The translations under genes and the position numbers were made by a program. A stretch of 56,095 nt of DNA. It comes from a virus (Duplodnaviria > Caudoviricetes). The DNA is taken from positions 1 through 56,095 of the IMG/VR virus record IMGVR_UViG_3300038549_000050, one strand, 5' to 3'. Below the pieces are notes generated by a model. That model was given only the letters and a program-made list of their open reading frames with translations. It did not search any database and was not told the origin of the DNA. Shown one piece after another: positions 2,625-56,095 of this stretch; within the stretch, counting starts at the first letter, position 1; every line of letters starts with the position of its first letter.

Positions 2625-3137
2625 ATGGCTGAGGTCAAGCTCTGGACCGACGACGAAGACAAGCTGTTGGCTGAGATGTACGAGAAGGGTCTCAGCGCGT
2701 CTCAGATCGCGAAGAAAATTCCAGGCCGCAGCAGCCGGAATGCCATCATTGGACGCATCCATAGACTCAAGCTGCCGCCGAGAGCGCCGCGGCCGGTGAC
2801 CGGAAAGCGAGATGGCCTCATTGCTCGCCCGTCACGGTCTTTCCGCCAGCCTCAGCTCAGCAAAGAAGCGACGCGCATTCTTCGCGAACTCGCCGCGCAG
2901 ATGAAGGAAACGGCAACTGTGGTTGAGAAGCCAGATGTCGCTGGACCGGTGGGCGGTGTTGCTCTTCTCGACTTGACACCGTCATCTTGCCGCTGGCCGA
3001 TCAACTCGCCGCCGCGCTTCGGCGAATTTCGCTTCTGCGGCGCCCATCGAGCTGAAGGTAGGCCTTACTGTCAACGCCACGCAGATATCGCCTATACGCC
3101 CTTACATGGACGTAAACGCCGGGAAATGGCGGCATGA
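2625..3137 (+). CDS. gcrA: GcrA cell-cycle regulator homolog
   Basis: WTDDE...GLSASQIA...SRNAIIGRIHRL N-terminus; LLDL...CRWP...FCG...PYC..H C-terminus. Confidence 0.9.
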   Translation: MAEVKLWTDDEDKLLAEMYEKGLSASQIAKKIPGRSSRNAIIGRIHRLKLPPRAPRPVTGKRDGLIARPSRSFRQPQLSKEATRILRELAAQMKETATVVEKPDVAGPVGGVALLDLTPSSCRWPINSPPRFGEFRFCGAHRAEGRPYCQRHADIAYTPLHGRKRREMAA

Positions 3138-4281: not shown

Positions 4282-4986
4282 GTGTCTGACAACAATCTAC
4301 CTGTTTCTACCACCAAAGGCAAGCCTGTCCTTCTCCAACATGACGGCAAAATTCTCGCCGACAGCCGGGAGATCGCACTGCATTTCGAGAAGCGCCACGA
4401 TCACGTTTTGGCAAGTATCGATGCCTTGATTTCCCATTCCCCAATTCTCGGGGATGGGACTTTCATTGAAAACAAGGTGCCGCATCCGGTTATATCAGGC
4501 CGAATGGACCGGTTCTTTGAAATGAATCGCGACGGCTTCTCACTTCTCGCTATGGGGTTCACAGGATCCAGGGCTTTGAAGTGGAAGATTGATTACATCA
4601 CGGCCTTCAATCTTATGGAAGACGCTTTCAGGAAGGTCCCTGATAAGACTCCATACGCCTGGATGCGCGCTGTGGTCGACGACATGGAAGCGCAGGATAA
4701 ACGCCTGTTCAGCGTCGAGAAGTCAGTGGAGCGTATTGAGAAAGTCGTCGACAACCTCGGCGGACATGAAGATTTCATGTCAATCAAGCGTTATGCTGCC
4801 CATAAAGGACTTCGTCTATCTACGGCCAAATCGTCAGAGCTCGGGCGTCTGGCAACAAAACTAACGCGGCAGCGCAAAATGAAAATGGGCACCCAGCCCG
4901 ACGAAACATATGATCATGTCAATACCTATCACCGCGATATTCTCGCAGAGGTTTTTGAACCGCTCTTGAGGGAAACAAAGCCGTGA
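4282..4986 (+). CDS. rha: Rha-family phage regulatory protein
   Basis: DSREIALHFEKRHDHVL...MNRDGFSLLAMGFTG..ALKWKIDYITAFNLME; GGGAG RBS before GTG 4282. Confidence 0.9.
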   Translation: MSDNNLPVSTTKGKPVLLQHDGKILADSREIALHFEKRHDHVLASIDALISHSPILGDGTFIENKVPHPVISGRMDRFFEMNRDGFSLLAMGFTGSRALKWKIDYITAFNLMEDAFRKVPDKTPYAWMRAVVDDMEAQDKRLFSVEKSVERIEKVVDNLGGHEDFMSIKRYAAHKGLRLSTAKSSELGRLATKLTRQRKMKMGTQPDETYDHVNTYHRDILAEVFEPLLRETKP

Positions 4987-5175: not shown

Positions 5176-6183
5176 ATGCTGAAGAAAAGCGCAATTTCGA
5201 TTCTCGCCGTGCTGGCTGGAATTTCGTCGGCGCGTGCGGCTGATCCTTTTGATCGTGGCGGATTGAAAGATACGCCGGCTACCGCTGGAGAGCGCGCCGT
5301 TAGCTGGAGCGGCTTCTACATCGGCGGCCAGATCGGCTATGGCAACGCCAATCATGATCTGACGGTGCAGCGCTATAACGGCGCGTATTGCTGGGATCAG
5401 TTCGGAAATCAACTGTCTAACGACGTCAACAGCACGAAATTGGATGATTCTACGGCGCTCACTGATGGGTTGAATTTTAATTTCGGCCCTGACAGCTTCA
5501 TTAAAAGCAACAGCGGCGCAACGAATGATGGAGATCCAGTTGGCGGCCTTGTGTATGGTCGCAATGATGATGGCGACTGCACGGATACAATTTCAAATCA
5601 AACACCGGCCGTAAACGATTCAATTGCTGTCGATCCATCCAGCCGCAACATCGCCAATCTCGACGGTCTGAACAGCCACGGCATCATCGGCGGCGTCCAG
5701 GTCGGCGCTGATTACCAGATGGGCCGATTTGTCGCCGGCGTCTTTGGCTCCTACAATCTATCGGCCATGAAAAGCGAGGGCAGCCTCGCCGATTTCGACG
5801 CCGGCTTCGAGGTCGAGAAGGGCGATGAATGGTCGCTCGGTGGCCGCGTCGGCTTCCTCGCCACGCCGCGCACCATGGTCTATGCTTTGGCCGCTTATAC
5901 GCAGACCGAATATGATTTCAGCGGCTATATCGGCACTGATGTCGGCAAGAAGACGGTCGATTTCGACGGAGTTACGGTCGGCGGCGGCATCGAAGTCGCT
6001 CTGACCAACAATGTCTTCCTAGGTGCCGAATACACGCATACGTTCTACGGCGAGGAGACGATTTTTGATACCGGCGCGTCCGATGTCGGCGGCTTCGGCC
6101 ATCGCGTGATCGACGACCTCGACGAAGACAAGATCATGGCCACGCTGAAGGTCAAGCTCAACGGCGGCCTCCTGGGCGACTAA
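5176..6183 (+). CDS. Outer-membrane beta-barrel protein, Omp25/RopB-like, with a large inserted loop
   Basis: Sec signal ending ARA-AD; GGLKD; SWSGFYIGGQIGYG; GGVQVGADYQMG; GGRVGF; GGGIEVAL...LGAEYTH. Confidence 0.85.
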   Translation: MLKKSAISILAVLAGISSARAADPFDRGGLKDTPATAGERAVSWSGFYIGGQIGYGNANHDLTVQRYNGAYCWDQFGNQLSNDVNSTKLDDSTALTDGLNFNFGPDSFIKSNSGATNDGDPVGGLVYGRNDDGDCTDTISNQTPAVNDSIAVDPSSRNIANLDGLNSHGIIGGVQVGADYQMGRFVAGVFGSYNLSAMKSEGSLADFDAGFEVEKGDEWSLGGRVGFLATPRTMVYALAAYTQTEYDFSGYIGTDVGKKTVDFDGVTVGGGIEVALTNNVFLGAEYTHTFYGEETIFDTGASDVGGFGHRVIDDLDEDKIMATLKVKLNGGLLGD

Positions 6184-6185
6184 TC

Positions 6186-6323
6186 ATGTTCACCATGTCA
6201 ATCATCGGCATCATCTGTACGGCGTTATTCATTCTGGTGGCTGGCATGACTTTCGGCTATTGGCTCGGTTATGAGTCCGCAATGGACGACATGAGCAAGT
6301 ATCCGATGTCCGATGATGACTGA
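6186..6323 (+). CDS. Small single-pass membrane protein (45 aa)
   Basis: Manual translation MFTMSIIGIICTALFILVAGMTFGYWLG... Confidence 0.5.
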   Translation: MFTMSIIGIICTALFILVAGMTFGYWLGYESAMDDMSKYPMSDDD

Positions 6324-6339
6324 GTGATTTAAAAACCAA

Positions 6340-6370
6340 AGAGCCGGAACGGGGGAAGACGTTCCGGCTC
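6340..6370. terminator. Strong hairpin GAGCCGGAACG...CGTTCCGGCTC
   Basis: 11-bp inverted repeat after the Omp operon. Confidence 0.55.
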
Positions 6371-6439
6371 CAAATATCCCCGCAGACGTGCCAATGCCCT
6401 GCACTGTAGTCAATATCTCACATTAGCGGGGCCAAGTCA

Positions 6440-7801
6440 ATGATGTGGTTTACCAGGATAACCGGCGGCATCCTATGGCTCGCCGCCATCGCGCTGACGA
6501 TCGCGCTCGTCTATGAGTTCACCAGTTCCGAGACTGCCAACAGCGTGGTGACGGGCATTGCCGGCCTCGCTATCGCCATTTCTGCGATCGGGCTGGCATT
6601 CGCGCGCTACGCCTGGCAGCGTCGGGCCTATCCAGAGATCGCCCTTGGCGTCGCCATGTGGCTGGCCGGCTTCGTCTGCCTCTCCTTCATTGAGGTCAGC
6701 TATTGGGTCAGTTCCTATCAGGAGCGCTACGCCCAATATCTGCAGGACAAGAAGGCAAGAGAAAGGCATGAAGTCAAGAGCGACCGTGCCTGGAATGCGC
6801 TGATGAGCGGCGACATGCCAGCGACGTCCGCGCAGCTCGCCGCCCAGATCGAAGCTAAGAAACTGGAATATCCGATTGTCCGTTCGGCTATGTGCGCCCA
6901 GATCACGAGGGGAGACAGCCGCCAGGCGTGCCAGGAGCTGTTCAGCCTGCAGGCGCAGTTCGCCAAGGCCAAAGAGCGTGAGCGCCTTGAAGGCATGAGC
7001 ACTGCGGTCCCGCAAGCTGTCGCCGGCAAACATATCGCCAACAACGTCTTTGCCTTCGCCGAAATCCTCGCCAAATGGCGCGGCGGAGAAGTCCTAGACT
7101 GGGCATACGTCATCATGCTCTGGAACTGGATCTTGCTCACGCTGGTCCGCGACGCCGGGTTTTTGGTGATGAACCCATTGGGGCGCGTTAGGAAGCCCGT
7201 AGCGGCCGAAAGGCCTGAAGCTATACTACCATCGGAGAAAGTAGGACAACGGGCTCCCAGGCCAGCTCTGACGCCACGGGAAGACGTCCTTGCTCTGATG
7301 GCGGGAACCGTCAAACAGAATTTGACAGTTGAACCGACACCAGAGGAAATCACCCCTCCAGACGGAGGCGGAACGAAAGCGCCTGAGCCCCTGCAGGTCC
7401 CAGATGCAGAAAGTAACCCAGTCGTTGCACAGAACGCAACGACTGTGGTCGCCGGCCCGTGGCCAGAAAAGCCGACGCGTAAAGCCAAGTCCGGCCTCAG
7501 GAAGCTTGATGAGCAGCATCAGAGCATCATGGATGCATTCATCGAGTCGCGTTACGTCGAGGATGAGATGACCATCGAATACGGCAAGCGCGTGGCTGGT
7601 GGCATCTCGGCGTCTGATTTCAGACACGAGTATGAGCGGTATTGCAAGGACAGTGGTCATCCCTTCGTGAGGGGATCGCATGCTGGCCGCTATGTCGCCG
7701 CCGCGGGGTTCGAGGCTGTTCTCAATCGTTCGAACAACAAACCATATTATCCGCTTACCAAAAGAGTTATAATTCCTCAGAAGAAAAGGGCATCGGCCTG
7801 A
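6440..7801 (+). CDS. Multi-pass membrane protein with coiled coil, Pro-rich linker and possible C-terminal winged helix
   Basis: Three N-terminal TM segments, a CxxxxxxxxxxxC pair, a fourth TM segment, then ASDFRHEYERYCKDSG reminiscent of D5/RFX-like wHTH. Confidence 0.65.
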   Translation: MMWFTRITGGILWLAAIALTIALVYEFTSSETANSVVTGIAGLAIAISAIGLAFARYAWQRRAYPEIALGVAMWLAGFVCLSFIEVSYWVSSYQERYAQYLQDKKARERHEVKSDRAWNALMSGDMPATSAQLAAQIEAKKLEYPIVRSAMCAQITRGDSRQACQELFSLQAQFAKAKERERLEGMSTAVPQAVAGKHIANNVFAFAEILAKWRGGEVLDWAYVIMLWNWILLTLVRDAGFLVMNPLGRVRKPVAAERPEAILPSEKVGQRAPRPALTPREDVLALMAGTVKQNLTVEPTPEEITPPDGGGTKAPEPLQVPDAESNPVVAQNATTVVAGPWPEKPTRKAKSGLRKLDEQHQSIMDAFIESRYVEDEMTIEYGKRVAGGISASDFRHEYERYCKDSGHPFVRGSHAGRYVAAAGFEAVLNRSNNKPYYPLTKRVIIPQKKRASA

Positions 7802-7926
7802 TCGCCGTTGACGCCAAAAGCCCAATGTGGCACAAATGAGAACGGGACCTGGCAGGGTCCCGTTTCTTGAATTCAGTTGCGTTGTTCGGTCGTTTCAATC
7901 CACGCCACACAAAAGGCGACTTCATC

Positions 7927-8238
7927 ATGAACATTACCCCCACCTTCCATACCCGTCAAGCGGTTTTGACTGCGCCGATCTTCGACGCTACGCCGCCGCT
8001 CCCGGAAGACGAGCCTTTCCTTCTTTCCGAGGACGACATTGTCGCTTCCACAGGGGAGGCCTGCGAGTTTCAGCGCAAGCTCGACGCTTCGCCCTATCTC
8101 CAGATCACCGGAGATCTCTCCATGGATGCAGTCGCTGCGTGCCATTGGGTGGTGGAGGCACGCAAGATCATTGGCGATCAGGGCATCCGCCAGTTGCTCG
8201 ACAATATCTCCTGGAACGAGGAGAAGATTAATGTCTGA
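7927..8238 (+). CDS. Hypothetical protein
   Basis: Acidic ~103-aa ORF. Confidence 0.5.
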   Translation: MNITPTFHTRQAVLTAPIFDATPPLPEDEPFLLSEDDIVASTGEACEFQRKLDASPYLQITGDLSMDAVAACHWVVEARKIIGDQGIRQLLDNISWNEEKINV

Positions 8239-8252
8239 CCGTAGGCGGCTTC

Positions 8253-8480
8253 TCAGGAGCGTTCGGTGGATTTCGTGATAACCATCTTGCGGGTAACTCC
8301 TGACCCGACAATTTTTCGCTTGATCGCACCCATCTTCTCCAGGGCGTCAATCGTGCGCATTTCTATACCAAGACGGGGGCGCCAACCATTACCGTAAATC
8401 TTGGCGTAAATATGCAGGGGGCCTCGCTCAAGCTCTTCCATGACGCGAGCCTGCGCGAATGACATTTTTTTCTGCGGCAT
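8253..8480 (-). CDS. Left-array cassette 8: small basic hypothetical protein
   Basis: GGAGG RBS; ends within junction motif (KSTERS*). Confidence 0.65.
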   Translation of the reverse strand: MPQKKMSFAQARVMEELERGPLHIYAKIYGNGWRPRLGIEMRTIDALEKMGAIKRKIVGSGVTRKMVITKSTERS

Positions 8481-8510
8481 AGCGCCCTCCGGGCGTTAGG
8501 TGGATAAGAT

Positions 8511-8711
8511 TCAGTCAATTTCGTTCGGCCGAACCCTGCCGCGCCCATTGCACATAGGACAGCAGACAGTCCTGATCTTCTTCGTATTCAGGCGCTCAAG
8601 ATGATACTGGACGACAGATGGAGATGATATGTCGCAAGCTGCCTGAATGGCCCGTACTGTGGCCTCTGGGTGTCGCTCTACGTAGGCGGCGATCCTTTCG
8701 CGAGTGGTCAT
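8511..8711 (-). CDS. Left-array cassette 7: LexA-type winged HTH plus CxxCxGxG motif
   Basis: ATVRAIQAACDISSPSVVQYHLERL resembles the LexA DNA-binding domain; CPMCNGRG; GGAG RBS before ATG 8711. Confidence 0.7.
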   Translation of the reverse strand: MTTRERIAAYVERHPEATVRAIQAACDISSPSVVQYHLERLNTKKIRTVCCPMCNGRGRVRPNEID

Positions 8712-8737
8712 GTTCGCTCCGGGACGTTGGTTGGATT

Positions 8738-9352
8738 TTACGACAGCGGAATTTCTTCGGGCGATGCGAAGCCGAACATCGGCAGGAAAAAGAATGGTTG
8801 CCCACACTCGCGCATGACTGAAGCGCCCTGGATTTCTGAATAGGCCAAGGCGGCGTCCCAAGCGGCGTCCAAGGCGGCGTTCCAGGCGGCGGCGGCGGCG
8901 GAGGAGGCGGCGGCGTTCCGGGCGACGTCCCGGGCGGCGTTTCGGGCGGCGATCACTTTCTGCCAATCCTCGTGCGTCATGCGATCAATGTGTTTCCAGA
9001 ACGCGAGGATGATATGCGCCTGATCTCCGAGGATTTTCTCGGGATTGGTCAGCACGATTGACGGCGCACCGTCGACGCTGTCGTTCACGCGCCGCAATAT
9101 GACCGCATGCGCAATGCTGATGCCCAGGAGCTTTGCCGTTTCCTTGTCGGCTTCGCGCTGTTCGGTTCCGTTCAGCTTGCGCGGCGACCAGCCACCAAGC
9201 AAATGGAGCACCTGCCCCTGTGCGCACATGCAGCCGATATTGGTCGGCGGCTCCTCCCCGTCGCCCTCATACTCGCTCCAGTCGATGAGCCGGCCTTTGT
9301 AAGGCTTTCCTTCATTGCTGTCCCAGAGCGAGATAAGTTCTTTAAGTTCCAT
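8738..9352 (-). CDS. Left-array cassette 6: hypothetical protein with an Ala/Trp (AARNAA/AAWDAA) repeat
   Basis: 204-aa ORF; 12-bp GCC-rich repeats near 8845-8950. Confidence 0.75.
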   Translation of the reverse strand: MELKELISLWDSNEGKPYKGRLIDWSEYEGDGEEPPTNIGCMCAQGQVLHLLGGWSPRKLNGTEQREADKETAKLLGISIAHAVILRRVNDSVDGAPSIVLTNPEKILGDQAHIILAFWKHIDRMTHEDWQKVIAARNAARDVARNAAASSAAAAAWNAALDAAWDAALAYSEIQGASVMRECGQPFFFLPMFGFASPEEIPLS

Positions 9353-9393
9353 TAGGATATTCCTTCGGGTCTGTGGGTGGGCGTTAGGTGGAT

Positions 9394-9753
9394 TCAGACT
9401 TGGTGCGTGCCTTCGACGCCGCGCGCCATGCGCTCACGGGTGCGCGAAAGCAGCTCCGCTTGAGCCGTCTGCAGATGGAACAGCGCCGACGCATTCGCCT
9501 CGCAGGCGTAGGGGCCGGCCTGGAAGCCTTCGAGGCGATCCATCAGAATTGCCAGCAACGCCTCGTGAGTGATGCCATTCACGCCGGCCTCATTGATCGG
9601 CCCGTTCTGGAACGAGAGGCGCACGCCGCTGCCGTCCGGAAGGGCGATCTCATATTCGTGGGAAGCGCCGCCGGGGCCGGGGCCGTCCAGAGCGCTCACG
9701 CGCAGTACGTCGTTGGCGGGGTTGACTTTGTGGACGGTAAGCTCTCTGCGCAT
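9394..9753 (-). CDS. tad1: Left-array cassette 5: Tad1-like anti-defence nucleotide sponge
   Basis: GPGGASHEYEI...FQNGP...GVNG...LLAILMDRLEGFQAGPY...NA.AL.H...RTRERMARGVEGT parallels the Tad1 family along its whole length. Confidence 0.85.
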   Translation of the reverse strand: MRRELTVHKVNPANDVLRVSALDGPGPGGASHEYEIALPDGSGVRLSFQNGPINEAGVNGITHEALLAILMDRLEGFQAGPYACEANASALFHLQTAQAELLSRTRERMARGVEGTHQV

Positions 9754-9800
9754 GATTTTCTCCGTTGGTGGGCGGTTGATGGATTCAGATTGGAGGCCGC

Positions 9801-10406
9801 TTAGGCGGCCTCCTCCTCGTCGTCTTCTCTCGGGAAAATTCGACTTTCCCAATCGTCCGGGAGCTCGTTGAGCGGCAGCGTTCCGACGAGGGCGACCGGA
9901 TAGTATTGTGCAGCGCGGCGCTCTTTCTCAAAGGGCAGCGATGCATAACGCCCCTTCTCGTGCGGCTCCTTCTGAAAGCCGCGATAGAATTCCAGAACAC
10001 CGTCATCGAGATTGATGATGTAGGCATATTCGCAGAACAGGCTGTCGCCCATGAAGGCTTCGCCGCCCTCCTCCATGAACTCCGCTTCGATGTAGTCTTC
10101 GATGTCGCCCTGCATCTTGCGAGAGAGAACATAAACCTCGGCCACATCGCGAGTGCTGACGCTGGTGTCGGCATACTTCTTGAGCTTTTCGATAAGCTCC
10201 GGAGTAGCGCGCTGGTCTTGTGGCCACATTTGAATGGCGCGCGCCTTGGTCTTGAGCCAGTCCATGCCGCGTTCTGGATCGCCCAAAATGTTGCGAACCG
10301 CCGCTACCACGTCAGCGCCGAGGCCGTCCGGATAGCTGTCGAAATGGTTGTAAGTGGCCTTGGTCTTGCCGTCGATAAAGACGCCGAGCGCTCCGCGCGT
10401 TCCCAT
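9801..10406 (-). CDS. Left-array cassette 4: conserved phage hypothetical protein
   Basis: MGTRG...YNHFDSYPDGLG...EYAYIINLD motifs common in phage early proteins. Confidence 0.75.
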   Translation of the reverse strand: MGTRGALGVFIDGKTKATYNHFDSYPDGLGADVVAAVRNILGDPERGMDWLKTKARAIQMWPQDQRATPELIEKLKKYADTSVSTRDVAEVYVLSRKMQGDIEDYIEAEFMEEGGEAFMGDSLFCEYAYIINLDDGVLEFYRGFQKEPHEKGRYASLPFEKERRAAQYYPVALVGTLPLNELPDDWESRIFPREDDEEEAA

Positions 10407-10448
10407 GGTGTTTTCTCCTCGGTTGATAGGTGGGGCGTTAGGTGGATT

Positions 10449-10691
10449 TCAGTCTTCGTCGTCCATGTCAATGCCGCAGTGGCGGCAGATGTAGCCAGAG
10501 CCGTCTTCATAAACGCGCTCGTGGGCGTTGCAGGTCAGTACGAACTTTTCCAGTCCAAGTCGCTCAACTTCGGCGTCGCATGTGCGCATATCCTGCCCGC
10601 GCCGAAATGGATCGTTCTGCTCGCGACGCCGCTGCAAGAGGCAAGCACCATCGCAGGTAATGCAATCAAAATTGGTCACAGGACATTGCAT
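10449..10691 (-). CDS. Left-array cassette 3: Cys-rich hypothetical protein
   Basis: CP...CITC...C and C.HE...CRHCG; GGAG RBS. Confidence 0.65.
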   Translation of the reverse strand: MQCPVTNFDCITCDGACLLQRRREQNDPFRRGQDMRTCDAEVERLGLEKFVLTCNAHERVYEDGSGYICRHCGIDMDDED

Positions 10692-10706
10692 AAGGCGCTC
10701 CGGGCG

Positions 10707-11021
10707 TTAGATGGATTTGGGTTGCTTCTGAAGAGACGCCGCCAGTTTCTCGGCTTCCTCCTCGCTAATTTCGTCGATGCCGAACGCGCCTTGTTCGACA
10801 GCCGTAAGCACGGCTTTATCGATGACGCGGTGAAGGGGCGTCGTGCCTTCTTCGTTTTCGTCATTCAGCGCGCGGCAAAGGTCCTTGGCGAACCCGCCTG
10901 AGTCCGTGACCTTCAATGGCGGCAAGGCGTTGCACGCCCATCCGCCGCTCACGATGACCGGCAATGCCGAGATATCCAACCGGATGATGATTTGGTCGCC
11001 CTCAATTTTTGCTTCGCTCAT
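10707..11021 (-). CDS. Left-array cassette 2: hypothetical protein
   Basis: Stop codon lies inside the junction motif (PKSI*); GGAG RBS. Confidence 0.7.
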   Translation of the reverse strand: MSEAKIEGDQIIIRLDISALPVIVSGGWACNALPPLKVTDSGGFAKDLCRALNDENEEGTTPLHRVIDKAVLTAVEQGAFGIDEISEEEAEKLAASLQKQPKSI

Positions 11022-11056
11022 GGGTGCTCCGGGCTCCGGGCGGTTTCAGGATTGGA

Positions 11057-11269
11057 TCAACGAACTTCAATAGGGTAATCAGTCGGAACGAGTATAGAAT
11101 CGCGCTTGGCGGTCTCAATTGAGACCATGCCCCGATACAGCTTCTCGCTCACATCCCAGACTTCGCGATACCAGCCCGTTTCCGGGTCTTTGATGCGGGC
11201 CTCGTCATATCCGTCTTCCGGATCTTCTCCGAGACGGTATTGATCAGCGGTGATTTTGCGCCATGGCAT
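11057..11269 (-). CDS. Left-array cassette 1: hypothetical protein
   Basis: GAGGAG RBS; first gene left of the divergence. Confidence 0.65.
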   Translation of the reverse strand: MPWRKITADQYRLGEDPEDGYDEARIKDPETGWYREVWDVSEKLYRGMVSIETAKRDSILVPTDYPIEVR

Positions 11270-11341
11270 ATTGCGATCTCCTCTTGACGCAATGCTCTTC
11301 GCATGTCAGAGTACTCAAGTCAATCACAAAGCGCAGACTAT

Positions 11342-11791
11342 ATGCCCGAAAATACCAGAACGTGGGGCTACATCCTTAGAACGCCCCGCACGCCGACACT
11401 GAAAAAGCAGTTGGAAATCTTGGCGCACTTGCGACTGGACACGCACGAGACCGGCCCGGTTTGGCGCGACGTGCTCGACAAGATCCCACGCGGCCCCAAG
11501 ACCGAAGAGACCGTGTTGGCAATGCGGGGCGACTTGCTGGAGATTGCCGAGCCTGGCGATTGCGTCGCGGTCGCAAGCCCTGCTTGCCTTGGCGTCTCGG
11601 CGGAGGATGCGCGCGCGTTCATCCTCGCGCTTCAGCGTAAGGGTGTGCGGCTGATGGTGTGGGACGAGTGTTGGAGCATTCAACCTGACGGCGACCCGAG
11701 CGAGCTGATCGCAGAGGTGAAGCGGCGCCATAATCGCGAGTACCAGCGCCGATCACGCGCCAAGGCAAGAAAACGTAAATCTCAATCCTAA
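11342..11791 (+). CDS. Degenerate serine-recombinase (resolvase) catalytic domain without HTH
   Basis: WGYILRT..Q...VWRD...LL...PGDCVAVAS...LGVSAED...L..KGVRL followed by an E-helix-like AEVKRRHNREYQRRSRAKAR; canonical YxRVS and DRLGR are altered. Confidence 0.7.
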   Translation: MPENTRTWGYILRTPRTPTLKKQLEILAHLRLDTHETGPVWRDVLDKIPRGPKTEETVLAMRGDLLEIAEPGDCVAVASPACLGVSAEDARAFILALQRKGVRLMVWDECWSIQPDGDPSELIAEVKRRHNREYQRRSRAKARKRKSQS

Positions 11792-11806
11792 TGGAGCAAC
11801 TATGCA

Positions 11807-12079
11807 ATGATTGAGGGAGTGTTGGTTCCAATGAAGGTCTGGCGGCCAGACGAAAGCGTTATCACCGTTGTGTGGATCGCTGGCGCTGAAGATCACTACG
11901 GCAATCTTGTTGCGGAAAACAGGCTTTCAAAAGAAGAATACTGGCCGCGTCTATACCGAGACGCGCGAGCAGACGAATCGCGCGTTCGCGGGCTTTATCT
12001 CACGCTGCGCGACGAAGTCGAAAAATGCGCCTACCGTCGCGCATGGGAAACGCTTTACCTCGACTACATGCAATCCTAA
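11807..12079 (+). CDS. Right-array cassette: hypothetical protein
   Basis: Ends QS* in the motif; start could be 11831. Confidence 0.6.
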   Translation: MIEGVLVPMKVWRPDESVITVVWIAGAEDHYGNLVAENRLSKEEYWPRLYRDARADESRVRGLYLTLRDEVEKCAYRRAWETLYLDYMQS

Positions 12080-12089
12080 TGGAGCCAAA

Positions 12090-12395
12090 ATGAGGTACTT
12101 AAGCGAAGAGCAAAAAGACGCATCTTTGCTGGCTTTGCGGTTGCTGAGTAGCGCTCGTGTGCGAGAGAGGAACGCAGATTACAACCGCCGCTTGACTGAT
12201 GCTCGCCGAGTGGCAGACGGCCTTTCGCCTGCCGAGATCATAGAACAATTGATCGCGCACAATCCAGCCTACATCCGGACCTTACTTGAAACCGAAGATG
12301 CCCGCTTTGGGACGGGCTCTTTGCGGGAGAGATACGCTCGCACCTTCGCAAATCAGCAGCTTTCCAAGGGAGCAACCAATGCAGACATGGAATAA
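12090..12395 (+). CDS. Right-array cassette: hypothetical protein
   Basis: ATG follows the junction RBS; reads through a degenerate junction at 12361. Confidence 0.65.
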   Translation: MRYLSEEQKDASLLALRLLSSARVRERNADYNRRLTDARRVADGLSPAEIIEQLIAHNPAYIRTLLETEDARFGTGSLRERYARTFANQQLSKGATNADME

Positions 12396-12600
12396 AGGCG
12401 AACCCCTCGCGAGCGTCGAAGTTGCTTGGCTACGGATCGAAGAGCCTGACGGTGATGGCGGTTGTTCCCTAAAAGTCGTCCTCGCCGTTCATGATGGCGA
12501 ATGGTGGTCTGAAGCCGGAGACTACAAAGGCGAAAGCTACACAGATCGCATTGATGGCAACATCACCGGATGGCTGCCGTTTGAAATCCCGTCCACCTAA
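12379..12600 (+). CDS. Right-array cassette: hypothetical protein (DUF551-like ITGWLP end)
   Basis: GGGAG RBS; ends PST* in the motif. Confidence 0.6.
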   Translation: MQTWNKGEPLASVEVAWLRIEEPDGDGGCSLKVVLAVHDGEWWSEAGDYKGESYTDRIDGNITGWLPFEIPST

Positions 12601-12612
12601 GGAGGCTGCGTG

Positions 12613-12762
12613 ATGCCAAGCAACCGGACATTGGGCTGGCTTTGGCTTGTGACCATGGCCGCTATGATTTCCACATTCGGCCTGACGGGGCAGAGAATGT
12701 TTTTAGAAATTGCGCTGGCTGGCGGGATAGGCTTTTTCGTCGGCCGCCTGCCTCAATCCTAA
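12613..12762 (+). CDS. Right-array cassette: 49-aa two-TM membrane protein
   Basis: Manual translation MPSNRTLGWLWLVTMAAMISTFGLTGQRMFLEIALAGGIGFFVGRLPQS*; exactly fills the gap between two junctions. Confidence 0.65.
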   Translation: MPSNRTLGWLWLVTMAAMISTFGLTGQRMFLEIALAGGIGFFVGRLPQS

Positions 12763-12770
12763 TGGAGCGA

Positions 12771-12941
12771 ATGATGCCGATATGCGTCGAGGTTGACGGA
12801 CAATTTGAAACTCGGGAAGAAGCATCGCAAGCGCTGCGCGAGGCAGCCCGCATGGTTGATTCGGGCATGTGGATCGCTTCGCAGCCGAGCCGGGCAAACC
12901 CGATGATCTTTATCACCGAAGTGGACGAAGACGAATCCTAA
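12771..12941 (+). CDS. Right-array cassette: small acidic protein
   Basis: Between junctions; ends ES*. Confidence 0.6.
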   Translation: MMPICVEVDGQFETREEASQALREAARMVDSGMWIASQPSRANPMIFITEVDEDES

Positions 12942-12952
12942 AGGAGCGGCCT

Positions 12953-13285
12953 ATGACCGCAATAACTGAGGAGTGGCTTGCTTCGGTCGGGTTCAAATAC
13001 CGTGACCCATTAGAACGCCAGCCGTTCCGGCACTGGAAGCTCACTTTCAACGAGCCGGACGACTATGGGCTTTATCTTGAAACCACGATGCCGGGGTGGC
13101 TGAACGGCGCGGGCGAACACGTCAACGCAGATGGCGGCTGGTTTCTGTGGGTGGGGCGCGAGAGCCATTATTTTCATCTGCGCCATGTCCACGAACAGTC
13201 TGAGATTGTCGCCCTTGTAGAGGCGCTGACAGGGTTGCCGTGGGAGCCAACGAAGATGGGCAATGTGCTCGTGAAGAAATCCTAA
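12953..13285 (+). CDS. Right-array cassette: hypothetical protein
   Basis: MTAITEEWLASVGF...; ends KS*. Confidence 0.7.
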   Translation: MTAITEEWLASVGFKYRDPLERQPFRHWKLTFNEPDDYGLYLETTMPGWLNGAGEHVNADGGWFLWVGRESHYFHLRHVHEQSEIVALVEALTGLPWEPTKMGNVLVKKS

Positions 13286-13296
13286 AGGAGGGGAAG

Positions 13297-13671
13297 ATGA
13301 GGAGAATTGAAAACCCAATGGATGACTTTCGGAATCGAAAGGTCACCTATGAGTTGGATGACGGCAGGCGAGTAGACGTAGACCCGCGCCTAATTCAGGA
13401 AATTGGCCTCCGAAAGGTCATGGAGAGACTTGGCGTCGAGATGCCAGCCGAGCGAATTCCTGTCTTCCATCATGGTGAGCGCGTCGGCACGGTGCCAGCC
13501 GAGTTCGATCCGGCGTTCATCAAGTCGAAGAGCTTCTTTTACGATCCGCGCCCTGGTGATTTCACCCGAATAGCCGAGGGCTGGCAGGTCAGTCACACGA
13601 TGGGACCGGGCGACGTTGCGTCGGTTCCTGGCTTCCAGGCTGAAGTGCGAACGCATCGTGAGCACTGGTAG
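13297..13671 (+). CDS. Right-array cassette: hypothetical protein
   Basis: ATG after the junction RBS. Confidence 0.65.
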   Translation: MRRIENPMDDFRNRKVTYELDDGRRVDVDPRLIQEIGLRKVMERLGVEMPAERIPVFHHGERVGTVPAEFDPAFIKSKSFFYDPRPGDFTRIAEGWQVSHTMGPGDVASVPGFQAEVRTHREHW

Positions 13672-13698
13672 AAACACGATCCAGAAAGGGAGGGAGCG

Positions 13699-13917
13699 AT
13701 GAAACGGAGACAGCGCCTGATCACGGTATGCGATGCCTGCCTGCGGGCATCGTGCTGGCACATGACTTTCCCGTGCCAGGATCACCAAACTGCCGGCACC
13801 ACGAAGAAAACAGCGCGAGAGCTGCGCAAGCTGGATCTGGAGCACCTGGACCATTACAGCCGCAAGGAAGTCGAGCGCGTCTGCGGCGGAACTGAATACG
13901 CAACACCGTCCATCTAG
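13699..13917 (+). CDS. Right-array cassette: Cys/His-rich small protein
   Basis: CDAC..SCW...C...LEH; ends PSI* in the motif. Confidence 0.65.
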   Translation: MKRRQRLITVCDACLRASCWHMTFPCQDHQTAGTTKKTARELRKLDLEHLDHYSRKEVERVCGGTEYATPSI

Positions 13918-13928
13918 GGAGCATTTGA

Positions 13929-14117
13929 ATGCAATCAGCACCTCTTAGTGGTCTCCGCGGCGAAAGCCCGCGCGACTCTTGGCAAAGGCAATACATCCGC
14001 AACGCCCTTGCAGCCCTCGGCCAGGTCAAGACGGAAGACAAGACGCTGGCAGAACACCTTCTGGCCGCAGAGCAGGCGCTGCGCAAGGCCGGCTCGTATC
14101 TCGACAGCAAATCCTAA
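13929..14117 (+). CDS. Right-array cassette: small helical protein
   Basis: Ends KS* in the motif. Confidence 0.6.
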   Translation: MQSAPLSGLRGESPRDSWQRQYIRNALAALGQVKTEDKTLAEHLLAAEQALRKAGSYLDSKS

Positions 14118-14128
14118 AGGAGCGGCCT

Positions 14129-14350
14129 ATGACGAAGCGCAAAATTGATCAAGGCAATGAGTTTCTTCTCTCTGGTTCGCTGAGAATGGAGGACGGCAAG
14201 ATGTATGCGCCGAAGGACGATGATCCGGTGCATTGCCCTGACCACAATGTGACTGTGCGGTGGGGTGACCTTGACGGCATTCAACAACTCGCTGTGGCCG
14301 ATGGAATCGACATCGCAGGTGATGATTGCATTCTGAAACTAAAATCCTGA
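14129..14350 (+). CDS. Right-array cassette: hypothetical protein
   Basis: ATG inside the 24-bp repeat; ends KS*. Confidence 0.65.
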   Translation: MTKRKIDQGNEFLLSGSLRMEDGKMYAPKDDDPVHCPDHNVTVRWGDLDGIQQLAVADGIDIAGDDCILKLKS

Positions 14351-14368
14351 AAGCGAGGAAATATCGGA

Positions 14369-14569
14369 ATGACCGCCGCCTTTTCCCTCTGTAACGACAA
14401 TCGTTGTCTTCGCCGTCTTCTCTGCGCCAGATACATGCTAAAACGAACGGACGACACCGGATTCGCTCGATTTCCAGGCGGCGAAGATTGCAATGGATAT
14501 ATTTCCCTTGCCGGATATATGCAGGGGGAAGCTATCGAAAGAGTGAAGGAACTGACCAAATGTTCATAA
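14369..14569 (+). CDS. Small Cys-rich phage protein
   Basis: C....C.....CARY...C pattern. Confidence 0.55.
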   Translation: MTAAFSLCNDNRCLRRLLCARYMLKRTDDTGFARFPGGEDCNGYISLAGYMQGEAIERVKELTKCS

Positions 14570-14928
14570 CAGCCGATCAACTCCTAGCCCACGCCATCGG
14601 GGATTATATCCTGCAATCTCATTGGATGGCCACTGAGAAGACCAAGAACAGCGTTGCGGCGGCGATTCACGCCGTGACCTACACAATCCCCTTCCTCTTG
14701 CTGACGCAAGACTGGGAGCCCCTGGCGGTCATTTGCGGCACGCATTTTCTTGTCGATCGGTTCAGGCTGGCGCGCTTCGTCGTCTGGTTCAAGAACGGTC
14801 CATGGAAGCCTCTAACGTCGACCGGATATCAAGGCGACGTGCCGTCATGGCTCTCGGTATGGCTCCTGATCGCGGCTGATAATATCTGCCACATTGCAAT
14901 AAATGGCGCTGCGCTGAAGTTTCTCTGA
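14560..14928 (+). CDS. DUF3307-like membrane protein
   Basis: HAIGDYILQSHWMA..K...H...Y...HFLVD...DN..H. Confidence 0.8.
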   Translation: MFITADQLLAHAIGDYILQSHWMATEKTKNSVAAAIHAVTYTIPFLLLTQDWEPLAVICGTHFLVDRFRLARFVVWFKNGPWKPLTSTGYQGDVPSWLSVWLLIAADNICHIAINGAALKFL

Positions 14929-15152
14929 TTGCAAAATTGCAATCATTTACCTCTTGACATTTCAGAAATGCCATTAAGACGGCGAAGAAAAAGCTTGACC
15001 CCCCGATAGGGGGTAGCTTATGCTTGGCATTGGAGAGTTCTGCGTTTTACCGGAACGACCACAGTCTCTTGGCGGGGACGGTCGTATCCTCAATCTGGCG
15101 GCGAAATCAACGTTTCGCTGAAGCCCTTTGCACGTCCGGAGCAACGCCGAAC

Positions 15153-16340
15153 ATGAGCTACCTTATCTCATCGCAAGCGGGTACGCAAGAAGAAAAATTA
15201 ATTCCTTCCTCAAATTCGCAAGGAGCTGAGGTCATTCCCTTCACTGGCTCCCGAGATGTTGTGTCAAGAGGCGAGATTGCTGATGCAGTCAAGCTCTGGA
15301 GACTCGAACGCGACCTGTCTGATGCGCTGACGCGGCAAGAAATCGGGGCGATGAGGATGCTTGACCGCATCGATGCCCAACGCAAGGCGCTCATCATAGG
15401 CTTTGCCGAATATCTTCGCAAGCATGAACGCTCTGATGTCGCCATGGGCGTGTATCTCGTATCGGTGCTCATGAGTGATAACGATCAGGGCATGTCTACG
15501 GTTTCACAGCCGACACTGGCGAAACTGTTTAAGCGGTCCGTGTCATCGATTGCCGATGCTCAGCGGCGGCTTCGCGAGGATAAGCTCATCACCATGTCGC
15601 GAGGCAGGAAGGCCGGAACGGTCCCGGTAATACCGCGCTTTGTCGCCAAGCAGTACAACCATCTGACGTGGGTTCTAGCGGCGCTTTGTGATGACGCGGC
15701 CCCCGTTAATCATCTACTCCCACCGGATGATTGTCAATCATCCGGCCAGACCGGATGTATTTCGAAATCCCTAGGCGGGACCGGATGTATTCCGAATGGA
15801 AATCATCCGGTCGAGGCTCCGGAAATCATCCGGCCGGACCCTATGCAATTTCAGTCTTCTAATTCAACTATATTGGAGAAAGCGGTTTCAGCCGTCGCGG
15901 TCGGCCTAGCATCGACGCTTGCCGTCATGCCGGCGGCTGCTAAACCAGAAGACCCCCCTGCCATCGTTCTGAAGGCAAAGCCATCTCTGGCGGAGATGTC
16001 AGACCGAATGATGAGGGCCAGCGGAAAAGCTCTCGCAAGCCCGGCGACGAATCCGTCGCTTCTGGTCATGTCGGAACTTCAATGCTGGCTTTCGAACGGT
16101 TGCGATTTCGAACTCGATATCATACCGACGATCGAGGCGATCTCGCGCCGCGCCAATGGCGGATCGATCGGGACATGGCGGTACTTTACGAAGGCGATAG
16201 CCAATGCGAAGGCAACCAGGCTGGCGCCGATGCCGGCTGGCGAAGCACAAACAAAAACACGGCCAAGCTGGCGTCCAAAAACCAAGGACGAAATGACCCT
16301 CGAAGAACTCCAAATCCATTACGACCGAGGCGGGGTCTGA
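15153..16340 (+). CDS. Phage replication initiator (central HTH, DnaD-like C-terminus)
   Basis: VSQPTLAKLFKRSVSSI HTH; WRYFTKAI C-terminal motif; directly upstream of the helicase; contains iterons; start uncertain. Confidence 0.7.
   Translation: MSYLISSQAGTQEEKLIPSSNSQGAEVIPFTGSRDVVSRGEIADAVKLWRLERDLSDALTRQEIGAMRMLDRIDAQRKALIIGFAEYLRKHERSDVAMGVYLVSVLMSDNDQGMSTVSQPTLAKLFKRSVSSIADAQRRLREDKLITMSRGRKAGTVPVIPRFVAKQYNHLTWVLAALCDDAAPVNHLLPPDDCQSSGQTGCISKSLGGTGCIPNGNHPVEAPEIIRPDPMQFQSSNSTILEKAVSAVAVGLASTLAVMPAAAKPEDPPAIVLKAKPSLAEMSDRMMRASGKALASPATNPSLLVMSELQCWLSNGCDFELDIIPTIEAISRRANGGSIGTWRYFTKAIANAKATRLAPMPAGEAQTKTRPSWRPKTKDEMTLEELQIHYDRGGV
15723..15876. repeat. Probable replication origin: six CCGGATG/CATCCGG iterons plus an AT-rich tract
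   Basis: Copies at 15723, 15737, 15750, 15780, 15798 and 15821 in both orientations, followed by AT-rich 15845-15875. Confidence 0.65.
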
Positions 16341-37622: not shown

Positions 37623-39269
37623 ATGGCTGACAATCCGTTGCTTCGATGGCTCTCAGGGGAAAGACCAGCGCCAAGCGCTGATCGCAACCCACTCTTGCGG
37701 ACATCCTCAGAGCAGGATTATCTGCAAAGCATGTCTCCTGTGGACGCGATGAGGTTCCGCTGGGAGCTCGGTCAGCGCAACGCCAAGCGGCTGACCGAGG
37801 AAGAGAAGCAGGCCATCGGCCGCAAGAACATGTGGGACCTGCTCTACATGACGCCGATCGTCGGCAATGTGCTGTCGGGGATGGATGTGCCGGGATATTT
37901 CCGCGCCGCTTCGCAGCACGCCGGGGCTGGCGACAAGAGCGAGGCGCGCAAGAACATGCTGCTCGCCGAACTGTCGGCGCTGGGCGCCATCAGCGGGTTG
38001 CCACTGGCACGGTTTATGGGGCGCCCGTCTGGCGCAACACGCGATGCGTCGCGGTCGATGAATACATTTGCCGGGCCGACGGCAAAGAAGCCCAACGAAG
38101 TTACTGTCTATCACGGCACGGCAAACGAATTCGAGCGGTTCGACCCGAACTATTTCGGCCAGCGGACGCAAGGGCGTGGTCCTGGCGAGAAACCGAACAG
38201 GACCACGGAACGGGCTTTCGCTTTTTCCGACGATCCTGCTCAATCCAGCGGATACGCCATCGAGCACCAAGGCGATCTCGCGTCCACAGGACTTGATCCC
38301 GAAAAGATGCGGCAGGCCTATCAAGCGTCTTTGAACGACAGTGGACAGATGATCCCCGAAATCTTTCAACGAGAACGCCAGAAACTCTTGGATGAAAACT
38401 TCAAGAGCGGGGCACGCGTATTCAAGGCGCATATAGACATCGGCGGCATGAAAAACGTCGACATGTCCGGCTATCGTTGGAATGCCGACGAAGGCAAGCG
38501 GTTGCGCAAAGCGCTGAATGACGCTCGCAAGGAGGGCTATAAAGGGCTGATCGTCAAGGGCATGACTGATGGTGACGGATCAACGGCGACGCAATATCTG
38601 ACGTGGACGCCGGGAACCGTGCGCAGCGCGCTGTCCGACAACCAGTTGTTCAGCTTCACCGGCATCCCGGCAGACAAGAAACATGCCGGCGCGGCGGTGC
38701 GCGGGACGGGCGAGAAATTGCCCGCGGACGAGGCCTCGCGCATGGCCCGTGCGAAGCAGATGGGTTTCCGCACGGGCATGGATCTCTACCACGGTACGAA
38801 CCAGGATATTAACGCTTTTGATCTCGGGAAAGGCGGTCGTACGTCGGGAAGCTCAGCGGCCTCGCGCGGAGTATCCGTGGCGCTTGATCCTCAGACGGCT
38901 GGTGAGTTTGCCGATCTTGCGGCCGGCAAACAGGGTAGTGGGCAAAATATCCTTCGACTGCTCCATCGGGCAGATCGTCCGGCTGTATTGTCGTTGGATG
39001 GGACGGAGCGGAATCACGAGATTGCTGCGACATTGGATGACCTCTGGTCTCGCGGCTACGACGCCGTGATGATGAAGAATTACACAACGCCCGGTGGAGA
39101 AAAGGGCCGGACGATCCTGGTGGTCAAGGACCCCTCGCAGCTTCGCTCGCCGAATGCGCAATTCGATCCGGCGAAGCGTAGCAGCGCCGACCTGCTGGCA
39201 GGGATTGCCGGCGCTACCGTTGGCGGCCCCGCAATATATGGGGCCACTCAGGGGGGCGATAGCCGCTGA
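37623..39269 (+). CDS. Probable ejected protein with two ADP-ribosyltransferase-like (ART-PolyVal-type) domains
   Basis: Two YHGT...F..FD / FSDD or ALDP / GYKG or GYDA modules; C-terminal QLRSPNAQFDP. Confidence 0.7.
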   Translation: MADNPLLRWLSGERPAPSADRNPLLRTSSEQDYLQSMSPVDAMRFRWELGQRNAKRLTEEEKQAIGRKNMWDLLYMTPIVGNVLSGMDVPGYFRAASQHAGAGDKSEARKNMLLAELSALGAISGLPLARFMGRPSGATRDASRSMNTFAGPTAKKPNEVTVYHGTANEFERFDPNYFGQRTQGRGPGEKPNRTTERAFAFSDDPAQSSGYAIEHQGDLASTGLDPEKMRQAYQASLNDSGQMIPEIFQRERQKLLDENFKSGARVFKAHIDIGGMKNVDMSGYRWNADEGKRLRKALNDARKEGYKGLIVKGMTDGDGSTATQYLTWTPGTVRSALSDNQLFSFTGIPADKKHAGAAVRGTGEKLPADEASRMARAKQMGFRTGMDLYHGTNQDINAFDLGKGGRTSGSSAASRGVSVALDPQTAGEFADLAAGKQGSGQNILRLLHRADRPAVLSLDGTERNHEIAATLDDLWSRGYDAVMMKNYTTPGGEKGRTILVVKDPSQLRSPNAQFDPAKRSSADLLAGIAGATVGGPAIYGATQGGDSR

Positions 39270-39432
39270 GCATCCAGGTGATGACGCGACAGGCGATCGG
39301 ATTGGGCGGCCGCATGCTGCTGTCGTCCTCCCAGCGGCGGACTGTCCTCGGGTCGGTATTCAGGATGACCCCGAGCTGGGAAGATGAAAGGCCCAACTTT
39401 TGCCGGGCCTGCTTGAATTCAGTGGGGGTCAT
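39214..39432 (-). CDS. XRE-family HTH protein
   Basis: MTPTEFKQARQKLGLS..QL...L....RTVRRWE. Confidence 0.85.
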   Translation of the reverse strand: MTPTEFKQARQKLGLSSSQLGVILNTDPRTVRRWEDDSSMRPPNPIACRVITWMLSGYRPPEWPHILRGRQR

Positions 39433-53217: not shown

Positions 53218-53293
53218 TGGTCTGGGTGGCTGGACTTGAACCAGCGACCCCCGCACTCCAAATGCGGTGCGCTACCAACTGCGCTACACCCAG
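53218..53293 (-). tRNA. tRNA-Pro(UGG)
   Basis: CTGGGTG/CACCCAG acceptor stem plus ACCA; anticodon arm CCGCA-TT-TGG-AG-TGCGG; T loop GGTTCAAGTCC. Confidence 0.95.
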
Positions 53294-55894: not shown

Positions 55895-56095
55895 CCTCTA
55901 TCTCTAGGATCTTTATGAGTTCATTTGCAAAGTAATCGTATCTTTGCGCCCGCGCCGCCGCCGCCCACGCCGCCGCCCCCGCCGCCCACGCCGCCGCCCC
56001 CGCCGCCCCCGCCGCCCCCGCCGCCGCCTCCGCCGCCGCCCCCGCCGCCCACGCCGCCTCCGCCGCCGCCCACGCCGCGCATGCCGCCGGCCACG
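55881..56095 (-). CDS. Ala/Trp-repeat protein (5' end off window)
   Basis: ...AAWAAAEAAWAAGAAA...RAQRYDYFANELIKILEIEGANG*. Confidence 0.7.
   Translation of the reverse strand, partial: WPAACAAWAAAEAAWAAGAAAEAAAGAAGAAGAAAWAAGAAAWAAAARAQRYDYFANELIKILEIEGANG

Follow-up and report, generated by a model that had tools for sequence, protein, structure and literature searches.

A short directional word at the gene boundaries of a phage early region, and the resolvase-fold protein gene that accompanies it

By what route do the small early genes of phages pass from one phage to another, and does the DNA between such genes hold a trace of it? Genes of this class, those for host take-over and anti-defence included, turn over very fast. 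The question is raised in concrete form by the stretch of DNA analysed here, called the window throughout: the whole of the IMG/VR virus record IMGVR_UViG_3300038549_000050 (56,095 bases, linear, an estimated 93% complete), which derives from a tailed phage of the Caudoviricetes. In its leftward early operon (8253-11269, minus strand in the list of open reading frames) eight small genes, g1 to g8, are each bounded by one copy of a short word, which an initial annotation had described as an end motif and had interpreted as a crossover site or, alternatively, as a signal for RNA processing, antitermination or protein binding. The word marks nearly every boundary of such genes in five otherwise unrelated alphaproteobacterial phage elements, where it travels with one conserved protein, here called r1, and the pair offers a concrete and testable handle on early-gene movement. 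The reading favoured below, which has about an even chance of being correct, is that the word is a composite junction between gene cassettes and acts without a dedicated factor.

When both strands were scanned with the 15-mer ATCCACCTAACGCCC, allowing up to three mismatches, seven matches were found in the 56,095 bases, all of them on the minus strand and all within the array (8257-10716); shuffled sequences gave a mean of 1.14 and a largest value of 5, and none of 100 shuffles reached seven. An eighth copy (11038-11053) is missed by the 15-mer and is exact for the bipartite form AATCC-N6-CGCCC, which all eight copies fit, five exactly and three with one mismatch. Both the count of eight copies, one per gene, and the identity of three of them (at 8491, 9379 and 10433) had been asserted initially and are borne out. 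With one mismatch allowed, the bipartite form gives 12 matches in total against a shuffle mean of 6.75, the four that lie outside the array being at chance level. In the alignment of the copies the conserved parts are the outer pentamers, the centre being variable; the spacer is fixed at 6 nt, and the centres of the half-sites are 11 nt apart.

All eight copies point the same way, sense to transcription, and each forms the 3′ boundary of one gene of the leftward operon. Followed in the direction of transcription, c8 (11038-11053) lies between g8 (11057-11269) and g7 (10707-11021), its outer pentamers exact and its centre divergent; c7 (10702-10717) contributes its TAA as the stop codon of g7, which ends in PKSI, and adjoins the GGAG of g6 (10449-10691); c6 (10433-10448) begins immediately past the TGA of g6 and precedes g5 (9801-10406); c5 (9770-9785) separates g5 from g4 (9394-9753) and starts 15 nt past the stop, behind a separate hairpin; c4 (9379-9394), between g4 and g3 (8738-9352), has as its first A the last base of the TGA stop; c3 (8722-8737), between g3 and g2 (8511-8711), begins immediately past a TAA; c2 (8491-8506), between g2 and g1 (8253-8480), adjoins GGAGG, with the ATG 10 nt past its CGCCC; and c1 (8257-8272, reading AATCC-N6-CGCTC) lies within the 3′ end of g1, with no gene after it on this strand. 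The last is a degenerate copy in which GAA takes the place of TAA, so that g1 continues for two more sense codons to a TGA and ends in KSTERS. The overlaps of c7 and c1 with the last codons of their genes had been pointed out before and were found as described; five further copies begin 0-4 nt past the upstream stop or share its last base. Seven of the eight also precede a gene, at distances of 10, 10, 10, 16, 16, 26 and 26 nt from word to ATG, and CGCCC adjoins GGAG in four of these junctions and lies 6-12 nt ahead of the Shine-Dalgarno sequence (SD) in the other three. The term end motif is therefore apt as far as the 3′ boundaries are concerned, and it is incomplete in that the same seven copies stand 10-26 nt upstream of the next ATG, so that an end motif and a start-associated motif are inseparable within the window alone. 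The genes themselves give no common thread: no paralogy was found among g1-g8, g3, g4, g5 and g7 match PHROG families of unknown function, and g2 has a weak winged-helix match. The relatives of g5 (L027 and L028) were unrelated phages without the word, and that lead was dropped.

The operon that runs in the opposite direction, of which r1 (11342-11791, plus strand) is the first gene, carries a shorter form of the word. Six exact copies of AATCCTAAWGGAG (AATCC-TAA-W-GGAG), all on the plus strand, lie within 2.4 kb (11784-14122; at 11784, 12072, 12755, 12934, 13278 and 14110), a count that was reached in none of 100 shuffles. Here the TAA is the stop codon of the upstream gene and the GGAG the SD of the next one, whose ATG follows after a further 5-7 nt. 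Three more junctions of this operon, likewise on the plus strand, carry variants: TCC-ACC-TAA followed by GGAGG (12591-12605), TCC-ATC-TAG followed by GGAGC (13908-13922) and AATCC-TGA (14343-14354). No short form was found at the ends of late genes in the window.

A tblastn search with r1 led to a single cultured phage, Aurantimonas phage AmM-1, and to a 46-kb circular, phage-like Sulfitobacter replicon. The sole protein that AmM-1 and the window have in common is r1, and in both AmM-1 and the Sulfitobacter element r1 heads one operon while genes of the divergent operon end in RTCCAACTAAC and then a C-rich tract. AmM-1 has two such copies and the Sulfitobacter element one, and the pattern has no further match in their 47.8 and 46.4 kb. 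The looser form RTCCAHCNAAC occurs six times in the window, twice in AmM-1 and once in the Sulfitobacter element, always at gene ends of the operon divergent from r1, and the core common to these phages is RTCCAHCTAAC with a C-rich tract behind it; in the Sulfitobacter operon a perfect copy stands after the last gene. A 14-mer search of IMG/VR returned 118 loci, mostly A+T-rich chance matches. In three of the 118 (L115, L123 and L206) a divergent r1-family gene lies within 2 kb of the word, against none of 94 unrelated loci; at L217, 4.2 kb away from the word, there is a weak match to a canonical recombinase. The full layout is found again in L123 and L206, the divergent operon reading AATCC-AAC-TAA-CCCC-GGAGG and the r1-side operon RRTCC-NNN-TAG-GAGC, and the first gene of L206 has a further copy in its 5′ leader, without an open reading frame (ORF) upstream or a stop codon in the copy. 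Five modules are thus known (the window, AmM-1, the Sulfitobacter element, L123 and L206), and r1 is the only gene common to all of them. The proteins whose genes carry the word are mutually unrelated; nevertheless, 27 of 52 genes in the five modules end in an in-frame TCC-(NNN)-stop, against 4 of 213 other genes on the same sequences.

The relatives that share the structural genes of the window lack both partners. Among 26 loci found by a portal search were four full records (G001-G004, 51-69% portal identity) which share head and tail genes with the window but none of the genes between 8253 and 14350; r1 is missing from them, RTCCAHCNAAC was found in none of the four, and only 5 of their 386 genes end in TCC-(NNN)-stop. 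All four encode a homologue of the cell-cycle regulator GcrA, and their gene junctions are dominated by ATGA overlaps. In three of these records (G001-G003, those behind the loci L029, L030 and L035) each genome has 6 to 11 junctions that read AGCATGA, in which the start-stop overlap is preceded by conserved bases. A lack of conservation in related phages had been named by the initial annotation among the outcomes that would count against its reading; the word is in fact kept in four other elements, and since r1 is the only gene that these elements have in common, the case for testing the 11342-11791 protein, already singled out for a binding assay, is now stronger. Further searches added no module. 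A DNA search with 7800-12000 against cultured phages gave no match; the exact 16-mer of the left word was found on 22 IMG/VR contigs, once on each, the 19-mer extended by GGAG on two metagenome contigs, in single copies inside genes, and the right form with spacer and ATG in 22 single copies in IMG/VR without arrays (18 of the 22 loci having a G+C content of 0.40 or less), all of which are read as chance. Searches for relatives by way of the helicase, the 6440-7801 protein, the r1-family member P0002 and the Sulfitobacter r1 found none. Four Sulfitobacter plasmids carry r1-like ORFs in a non-phage context, without the word.

What kind of protein r1 is could be judged from its predicted structure. 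It has 149 residues and closes with a final helix and a basic tail; in Pfam it has only a weak resolvase match, and no recognisable helix-turn-helix (HTH) or other DNA-binding domain was found there. A word-index search with r1 returned r1 itself only and a sequence search of the PDB nothing, tblastn with the family members P0007 and P0020 returned only AmM-1 and the same Sulfitobacter plasmids, and an exhaustive HMMER search yielded 62 family representatives. The model, built on 26 family members (predicted local distance difference test score, pLDDT, 93.6), matched best in Foldseek to the gamma-delta resolvase 1zr2_A (E 2.8e-8; template-modelling score for the query, TMq, 0.72); all matches listed, among 33 with E up to 0.001, were serine recombinases, with gamma-delta and Tn3 resolvases best, and in the atlas the TM values were 0.63-0.78. 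As modelled, r1 has the fold of a serine-recombinase catalytic domain with a long E helix. In 24 of the 26 aligned members GY(I/A/V/M)L followed by xxPGRP stands where resolvases read GYxRVS, so that serine 10 and arginine 8 are lost; the serine column holds mostly A, G, T or M and the arginine column L, the outliers being P0062, which keeps GYVRVS, and P0050, which reads LYLL.

Most of the 62 representatives are free-standing proteins of 120-165 residues (44 have at most 165 and 18 more than 200). Nine long members were scanned, of which six have a C-terminal GIY-YIG domain (three above the Pfam cut-off) and one NUMOD4 with HNH_3; the r1 of L206 (264 residues) has a weak GIY-YIG match, and no match to GIY-YIG, HNH or HNH_3 was found in the window record. 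Immediately upstream of this r1-GIY-YIG gene, a small ORF of L206 (8925-9220, minus strand) looks ribbon-helix-helix-like by eye and may encode a regulator of the L206 module. Literature listings on Aurantimonas and AmM-1 and on serine-less serine recombinases, among which the AmM-1 genome paper did not figure, yielded neither the word nor a serine-less resolvase-fold phage protein, and to our knowledge this family (P0002-P0062, about 62 representatives) has not been described. The divergent promoter region between the two operons (11270-11341) contains no copy of the word, at up to three mismatches to the 15-mer or one to the bipartite form. A one-mismatch match to AATCC-N6-CGCCC at 11371-11386 (plus strand), 29 nt inside r1, is at chance level, and the Sulfitobacter r1 homologue has AAATCCAAC immediately ahead of its ATG; either may be chance, or a site for r1 on its own message.

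That gene content changes at the word was seen in contigs of X2, an aquatic metagenome run with a related phage population, which cover 6000-8500 and 13682-16000 of the window and almost nothing of 9674-13681. Among the events listed, those within the arrays all fall at a junction copy. In one contig 14123 is joined to 14355, and the gene 14129-14350 and one junction copy are consequently missing, the right end of the skipped 231-nt stretch being formed by the AATCC-TGA variant. Elsewhere, downstream of a different gene, homology sets in at 14110, on the first base of a copy, or at 13916, inside the TCC-ATC-TAG variant, where the upstream gene of the other phage is again a different one and ends in the AATCC-TAA form; and it ends at 8486, 5 nt from c2, with a different gene starting 5 nt past the shared GGAGG. 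These three breakpoints (8486, 13916 and 14110) are all within 6 nt of a junction copy. Single genes are also shared between distant modules: gp40 of AmM-1 is 71% identical to 5409-5708 of L123, and gp43 of AmM-1 71% identical to 7652-7912 of L206, whereas the r1 genes of the same phages show just 34-35% identity. For gp40 and its counterpart the two DNAs are homologous over the whole interval between one junction and the next, and the neighbouring genes on either side are unrelated; for gp43 and its counterpart homology sets in at the ATG and stops inside the gene before the 3′ junctions, because gp43 is longer. Taken as a statement about evolution, the earlier idea of a crossover site is supported by the X2 breakpoints and by these two gene pairs; its association with integrons is not (see below). 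As a separate matter, an alanine-codon repeat lies at 8851-8940, inside g3, where the contigs of another run, X1, are cut; X1 probably represents the source sample itself and lends no independent evidence. One X2 record, in this repeat, connects 11483 and 8932 across 30 unmatched letters and could not be interpreted.

The behaviour of the word in RNA was followed by folding with RNA parameters, for the eight short junctions and for 215-nt contexts. No hairpin or inverted repeat was found in the word in the folds of the eight junctions, nor any pairing of the word with the downstream SD, and the word has no dyad symmetry. It is unpaired in the centroid folds of all eight junctions and in the minimum-free-energy folds of five; those of 8257, 8722 and 10433 pair two to three of its bases. 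The z-scores of the junctions range from -0.85 to +1.28, barring the c5 junction (z -3.1), where a G+C-rich hairpin (9790-9815, minus strand) with the g5 stop codon in its loop lies outside the repeated word and occurs at this junction only. In the 215-nt contexts the mean unpaired probability of the word ranges over 0.53-0.97 in the seven copies with a gene after them, compared with 0.43-0.49 for the contexts as a whole and 0.45 (sd 0.14) for 39 late-gene ends, c1 being the least unpaired copy (0.28). A search of 8000-14500 against Rfam, with E up to 1, returned no family.

According to the favoured reading, each copy would mark the boundary of a single small early gene that has no promoter of its own, i.e., a cassette, and would work at two levels. 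On the mRNA it would be part of the unstructured intercistronic region (stop codon, G-poor spacer, ribosome site) of closely spaced and probably translationally coupled genes, in which the word supplies or trails the stop codon and keeps the region before the ribosome site unstructured; in this way it may affect translation. On the DNA it would provide the short stretch of homology through which cassettes are acquired, lost and swapped among related phages. Since the word is the only sequence common to all cassettes, exchange between phages would resolve there, and the crossovers would have occurred within the word, rather than the products having been filtered to gene boundaries. As for the recombining enzymes, none of the recombination genes looked for (ERF, RecT, YqaJ) was found in the record, so that short-homology exchange would need host functions or unknown proteins.

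Several points weigh against this proposal, the missing recombination genes among them. The shared homology is short (11-25 nt), and the repeat at the X2 deletion is an imperfect one of 12 nt. Selection for intact genes would also leave breakpoints at boundaries, and every boundary in the arrays carries the word. The X2 data are contigs, of which the best-supported events were considered, with 88 loose ends and 94 pieces beyond these. Only five modules make up the sample, and as two were found through the motif and two through r1, each gives one independent observation; the gene ends of L123 and L206, moreover, come from a crude gene caller. A translational role alone does not account for c1, which has no gene downstream, for the terminal copy of the Sulfitobacter element, or for the conservation of the outer pentamers around a variable centre. 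Such a pattern looks more like a binding site, and the tie between the word and r1 is left unaccounted for; the fixed spacing of the pentamers and this tie both point to a factor that reads the word.

Such a factor could be r1. That the word is a recognition site, in DNA or in nascent RNA, for r1 or an r1 complex, which would switch the operon at each gene boundary as a roadblock or as a translational operator beside each ribosome site, with cassette exchange as a by-product, is possible though rather improbable. It would explain why r1 is the one gene shared by the five modules, why the word is absent from all four r1-less relatives, the excess of divergent r1-family genes at the 14-mer loci and the bipartite conservation at fixed spacing; the asymmetry of the word resembles that of stoperators as described in the accounts cited (PMC9283540, PMC3203893), its orientation with transcription is likewise a trait of stoperators, and the fusion of the r1 domain to GIY-YIG or HNH nucleases in relatives suggests that the domain works on DNA. 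Yet r1 offers only its basic tail in place of a recognisable DNA-binding domain, the promoter region 11270-11341 is without a copy, the rightward operon retains the AATCC half only, and the r1-like ORFs on the four Sulfitobacter plasmids stand without the word. The same fusions (six GIY-YIG and one HNH_3 among nine long members, and the weak match in L206) would fit a more active role, in which the word is the target of r1-linked cutting or marking and a nick or break stimulates gene conversion between co-infecting phages, so that cassettes are mobilised much as in intronless homing or, functionally, in an integron. A recombinase-fold anchor gene does lie beside promoter-less cassette arrays with a conserved 3′ site on each cassette (in L206 with a site before the first cassette), and cassettes have been exchanged between distant modules; but the window r1 has no nuclease domain and its record no nuclease match, the family has lost the catalytic serine and Arg8 of serine recombinases, the word lacks dyad symmetry, and the fusions could stem from homing-endonuclease genes that landed behind r1. 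This role is unlikely. A bolder version, to which little probability is given, would make the arrays a gene-capture platform of phages, where a protein with a dead recombinase fold recognises the word and nicks or marks it, directly or via a partner, and so moves cassettes between co-infecting alphaproteobacterial phages; it would amount to an integron-like system made from a serine-recombinase fold and homing-type nucleases, in place of a tyrosine integrase and attC hairpins.

Other explanations do without r1. The word might be an RNA signal read by the host, either a processing site for an endoribonuclease or a C-rich, G-poor patch for loading Rho that couples transcription to translation; this agrees with its predicted single-strandedness and base composition at every cistron boundary and with the terminal copies at operon ends in the window and the Sulfitobacter element, and it is nonetheless quite unlikely, as the short form of the rightward operon is not C-rich and a general host factor should not be confined to modules with r1 and missed by all four GcrA-encoding relatives. 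If each copy were a promoter for the host or a phage RNA polymerase, TTGACT 13 nt upstream of CTAACG at 8491 could be taken as a trace of it, but no conserved element was found upstream of the other seven copies, a consensus scan gave no promoter-like site at any copy and shuffle-level numbers over the region (4 against a mean of 3.1), and the 20 larger ORFs, compared with PHROGs and not in a search aimed at RNA-polymerase families, gave no RNA polymerase match; this is very improbable. The chance that an integron integrase recombines the copies as attC sites is close to nil. The initial annotation had seen an RYYYAAC-like core in the copies and noted that the partner GTTRRRY and the attC hairpin were absent. 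The core is present in five of the eight copies, not in all, and the layout is cassette-like; a same-strand GTTRRRY no further than 150 nt away was seen downstream of only two copies and upstream of one, the folds contain no hairpin, and PF00589 (tyrosine recombinase) has no match in the 93%-complete record while all 14 control genomes matched. With no hairpin, no consistent GTTRRRY and no tyrosine recombinase, three defining features fail, and membership was rejected. Three further candidates were dropped: the word can be likened to the 16S rRNA 3′ end and equally to the complement of that end, in neither case beyond chance, c2 alone bears any close likeness to a DnaA box, and GANTC sites of CcrM/GcrA overlap or adjoin only three of the eight left copies.

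How does a junction word of this sort compare with systems already known? In integrons, promoter-less cassettes lie in one orientation beside a recombinase gene, each with a conserved attC at its 3′ end, and are shared between unrelated elements. The window likewise has promoter-less cassettes with a 3′ site beside a gene of recombinase fold, shared between otherwise unrelated elements, but no attC hairpin, no pair of core and inverse core and no tyrosine recombinase, its anchor having a serine-recombinase fold without the catalytic serine. T4-type phages possess free-standing homing endonucleases of the Seg (GIY-YIG) and Mob (HNH) kinds; in some relatives the anchor domain carries a GIY-YIG or HNH domain, and conversion of neighbouring genes between co-infecting phages would give the pattern seen, while the window itself is without a nuclease domain match. 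A nearer parallel is found in the promoter-early stem-loops (PeSLs) of T4-type phages, which are about 100 bp long and contain a sigma-70 promoter and a terminator stem-loop, and of which two copies can flank a gene in one phage where the other phage has a single copy (Arbiol et al. 2010, PMC2839356). As far as that account is drawn on here, the likeness lies in a short conserved intergenic element that recurs in variable early regions beside small genes whose function is unknown, that includes the stop codon upstream and the SD downstream, and that occurs in two copies versus one around a gene, as with 14129-14350 and the X2 contig. Judged by the same part of the source, the window differs in having a word of only 13-25 nt without promoter or stem-loop, promoter-less cassettes in operons, and an element tied to one anchor gene.

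The start-associated sequences (SAS) of cluster K mycobacteriophages, with the 13-bp consensus GGGATAGGAGCCC at 3-7 bp from the start codon (Pope et al. 2011, PMC3203893), had still not been tested for function as of 2025, to judge from the portion of the later account used here (PMC12699233). Going by these descriptions, both are asymmetric words in a single orientation, near the starts of non-structural genes only, which contain or adjoin the SD core, sometimes include the upstream stop, and are shared by genes of different families. The sequence is another one and so is the host phylum, the left word stands 10-26 nt from the ATG (the right form 5-7 nt), and an anchor protein and cassette exchange are features that the passages on SAS do not report; within these bounds the word is alike in kind to SAS and not a member. 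Stoperators lie in short intergenic spaces, oriented with transcription, and the same site also acts as the operator at an early promoter. Those of cluster A mycobacteriophages are asymmetric multi-copy sites at which the bound immunity repressor terminates elongation (PMC9283540, PMC3203893). The window shares with what is described there the asymmetry and the many copies, eight of eight in one orientation at gene boundaries; it differs from it in that no copy lies at the window promoter, no repressor was identified, and all the copies fall within one 3-kb operon. Altogether, the word appears from these comparisons to be a relative of known kinds, namely the PeSLs of T4 and the SAS of cluster K, from which it differs in the points given. 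Should r1 prove to act at the word, the arrays would represent a cassette system of a new kind; otherwise they would still be a clear second case, outside the T4-type phages, in which regulatory junctions also serve as recombination linkers, and the word would be akin to the start-associated sequences, which themselves still lack an explanation.

The remainder of the record is that of a tailed phage, with terminase, portal, major head protein, a DnaB-like helicase and a primase-polymerase. In one region (2625-3137, 4282-4986, 5176-6183) it encodes a GcrA homologue (E 5e-33) and a Rha regulatory protein, together with a 335-residue protein weakly matched to an outer-membrane beta-barrel. Since the GcrA regulator is known from the Alphaproteobacteria, the host of the phage is probably an alphaproteobacterium. 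Just upstream of the helicase gene, inside the 15153-16340 gene, three 27-nt direct repeats (15736-15850), each with a short inverted repeat, are laid out in a way that resembles the iterons of a replication origin within an initiator gene. The sole tRNA gene is that of tRNA-Pro (anticodon TGG; 53218-53293, minus strand). Both ends of the record (1-105, 666-1078 and 55926-56088) run out into G+C-rich tandem repeats of short period (15 nt, and 9-18 nt) that lie in minus-strand ORFs; the assembly was probably interrupted here, within repetitive glycine-rich genes, and this would explain its status as linear and 93% complete. Finally, two minus-strand genes (39214-40025) stand amid the plus-strand late genes and encode a 198-residue protein of no known family and a 72-residue Xre-type HTH protein, the start of the latter overlapping the stop of the former (ATGA).

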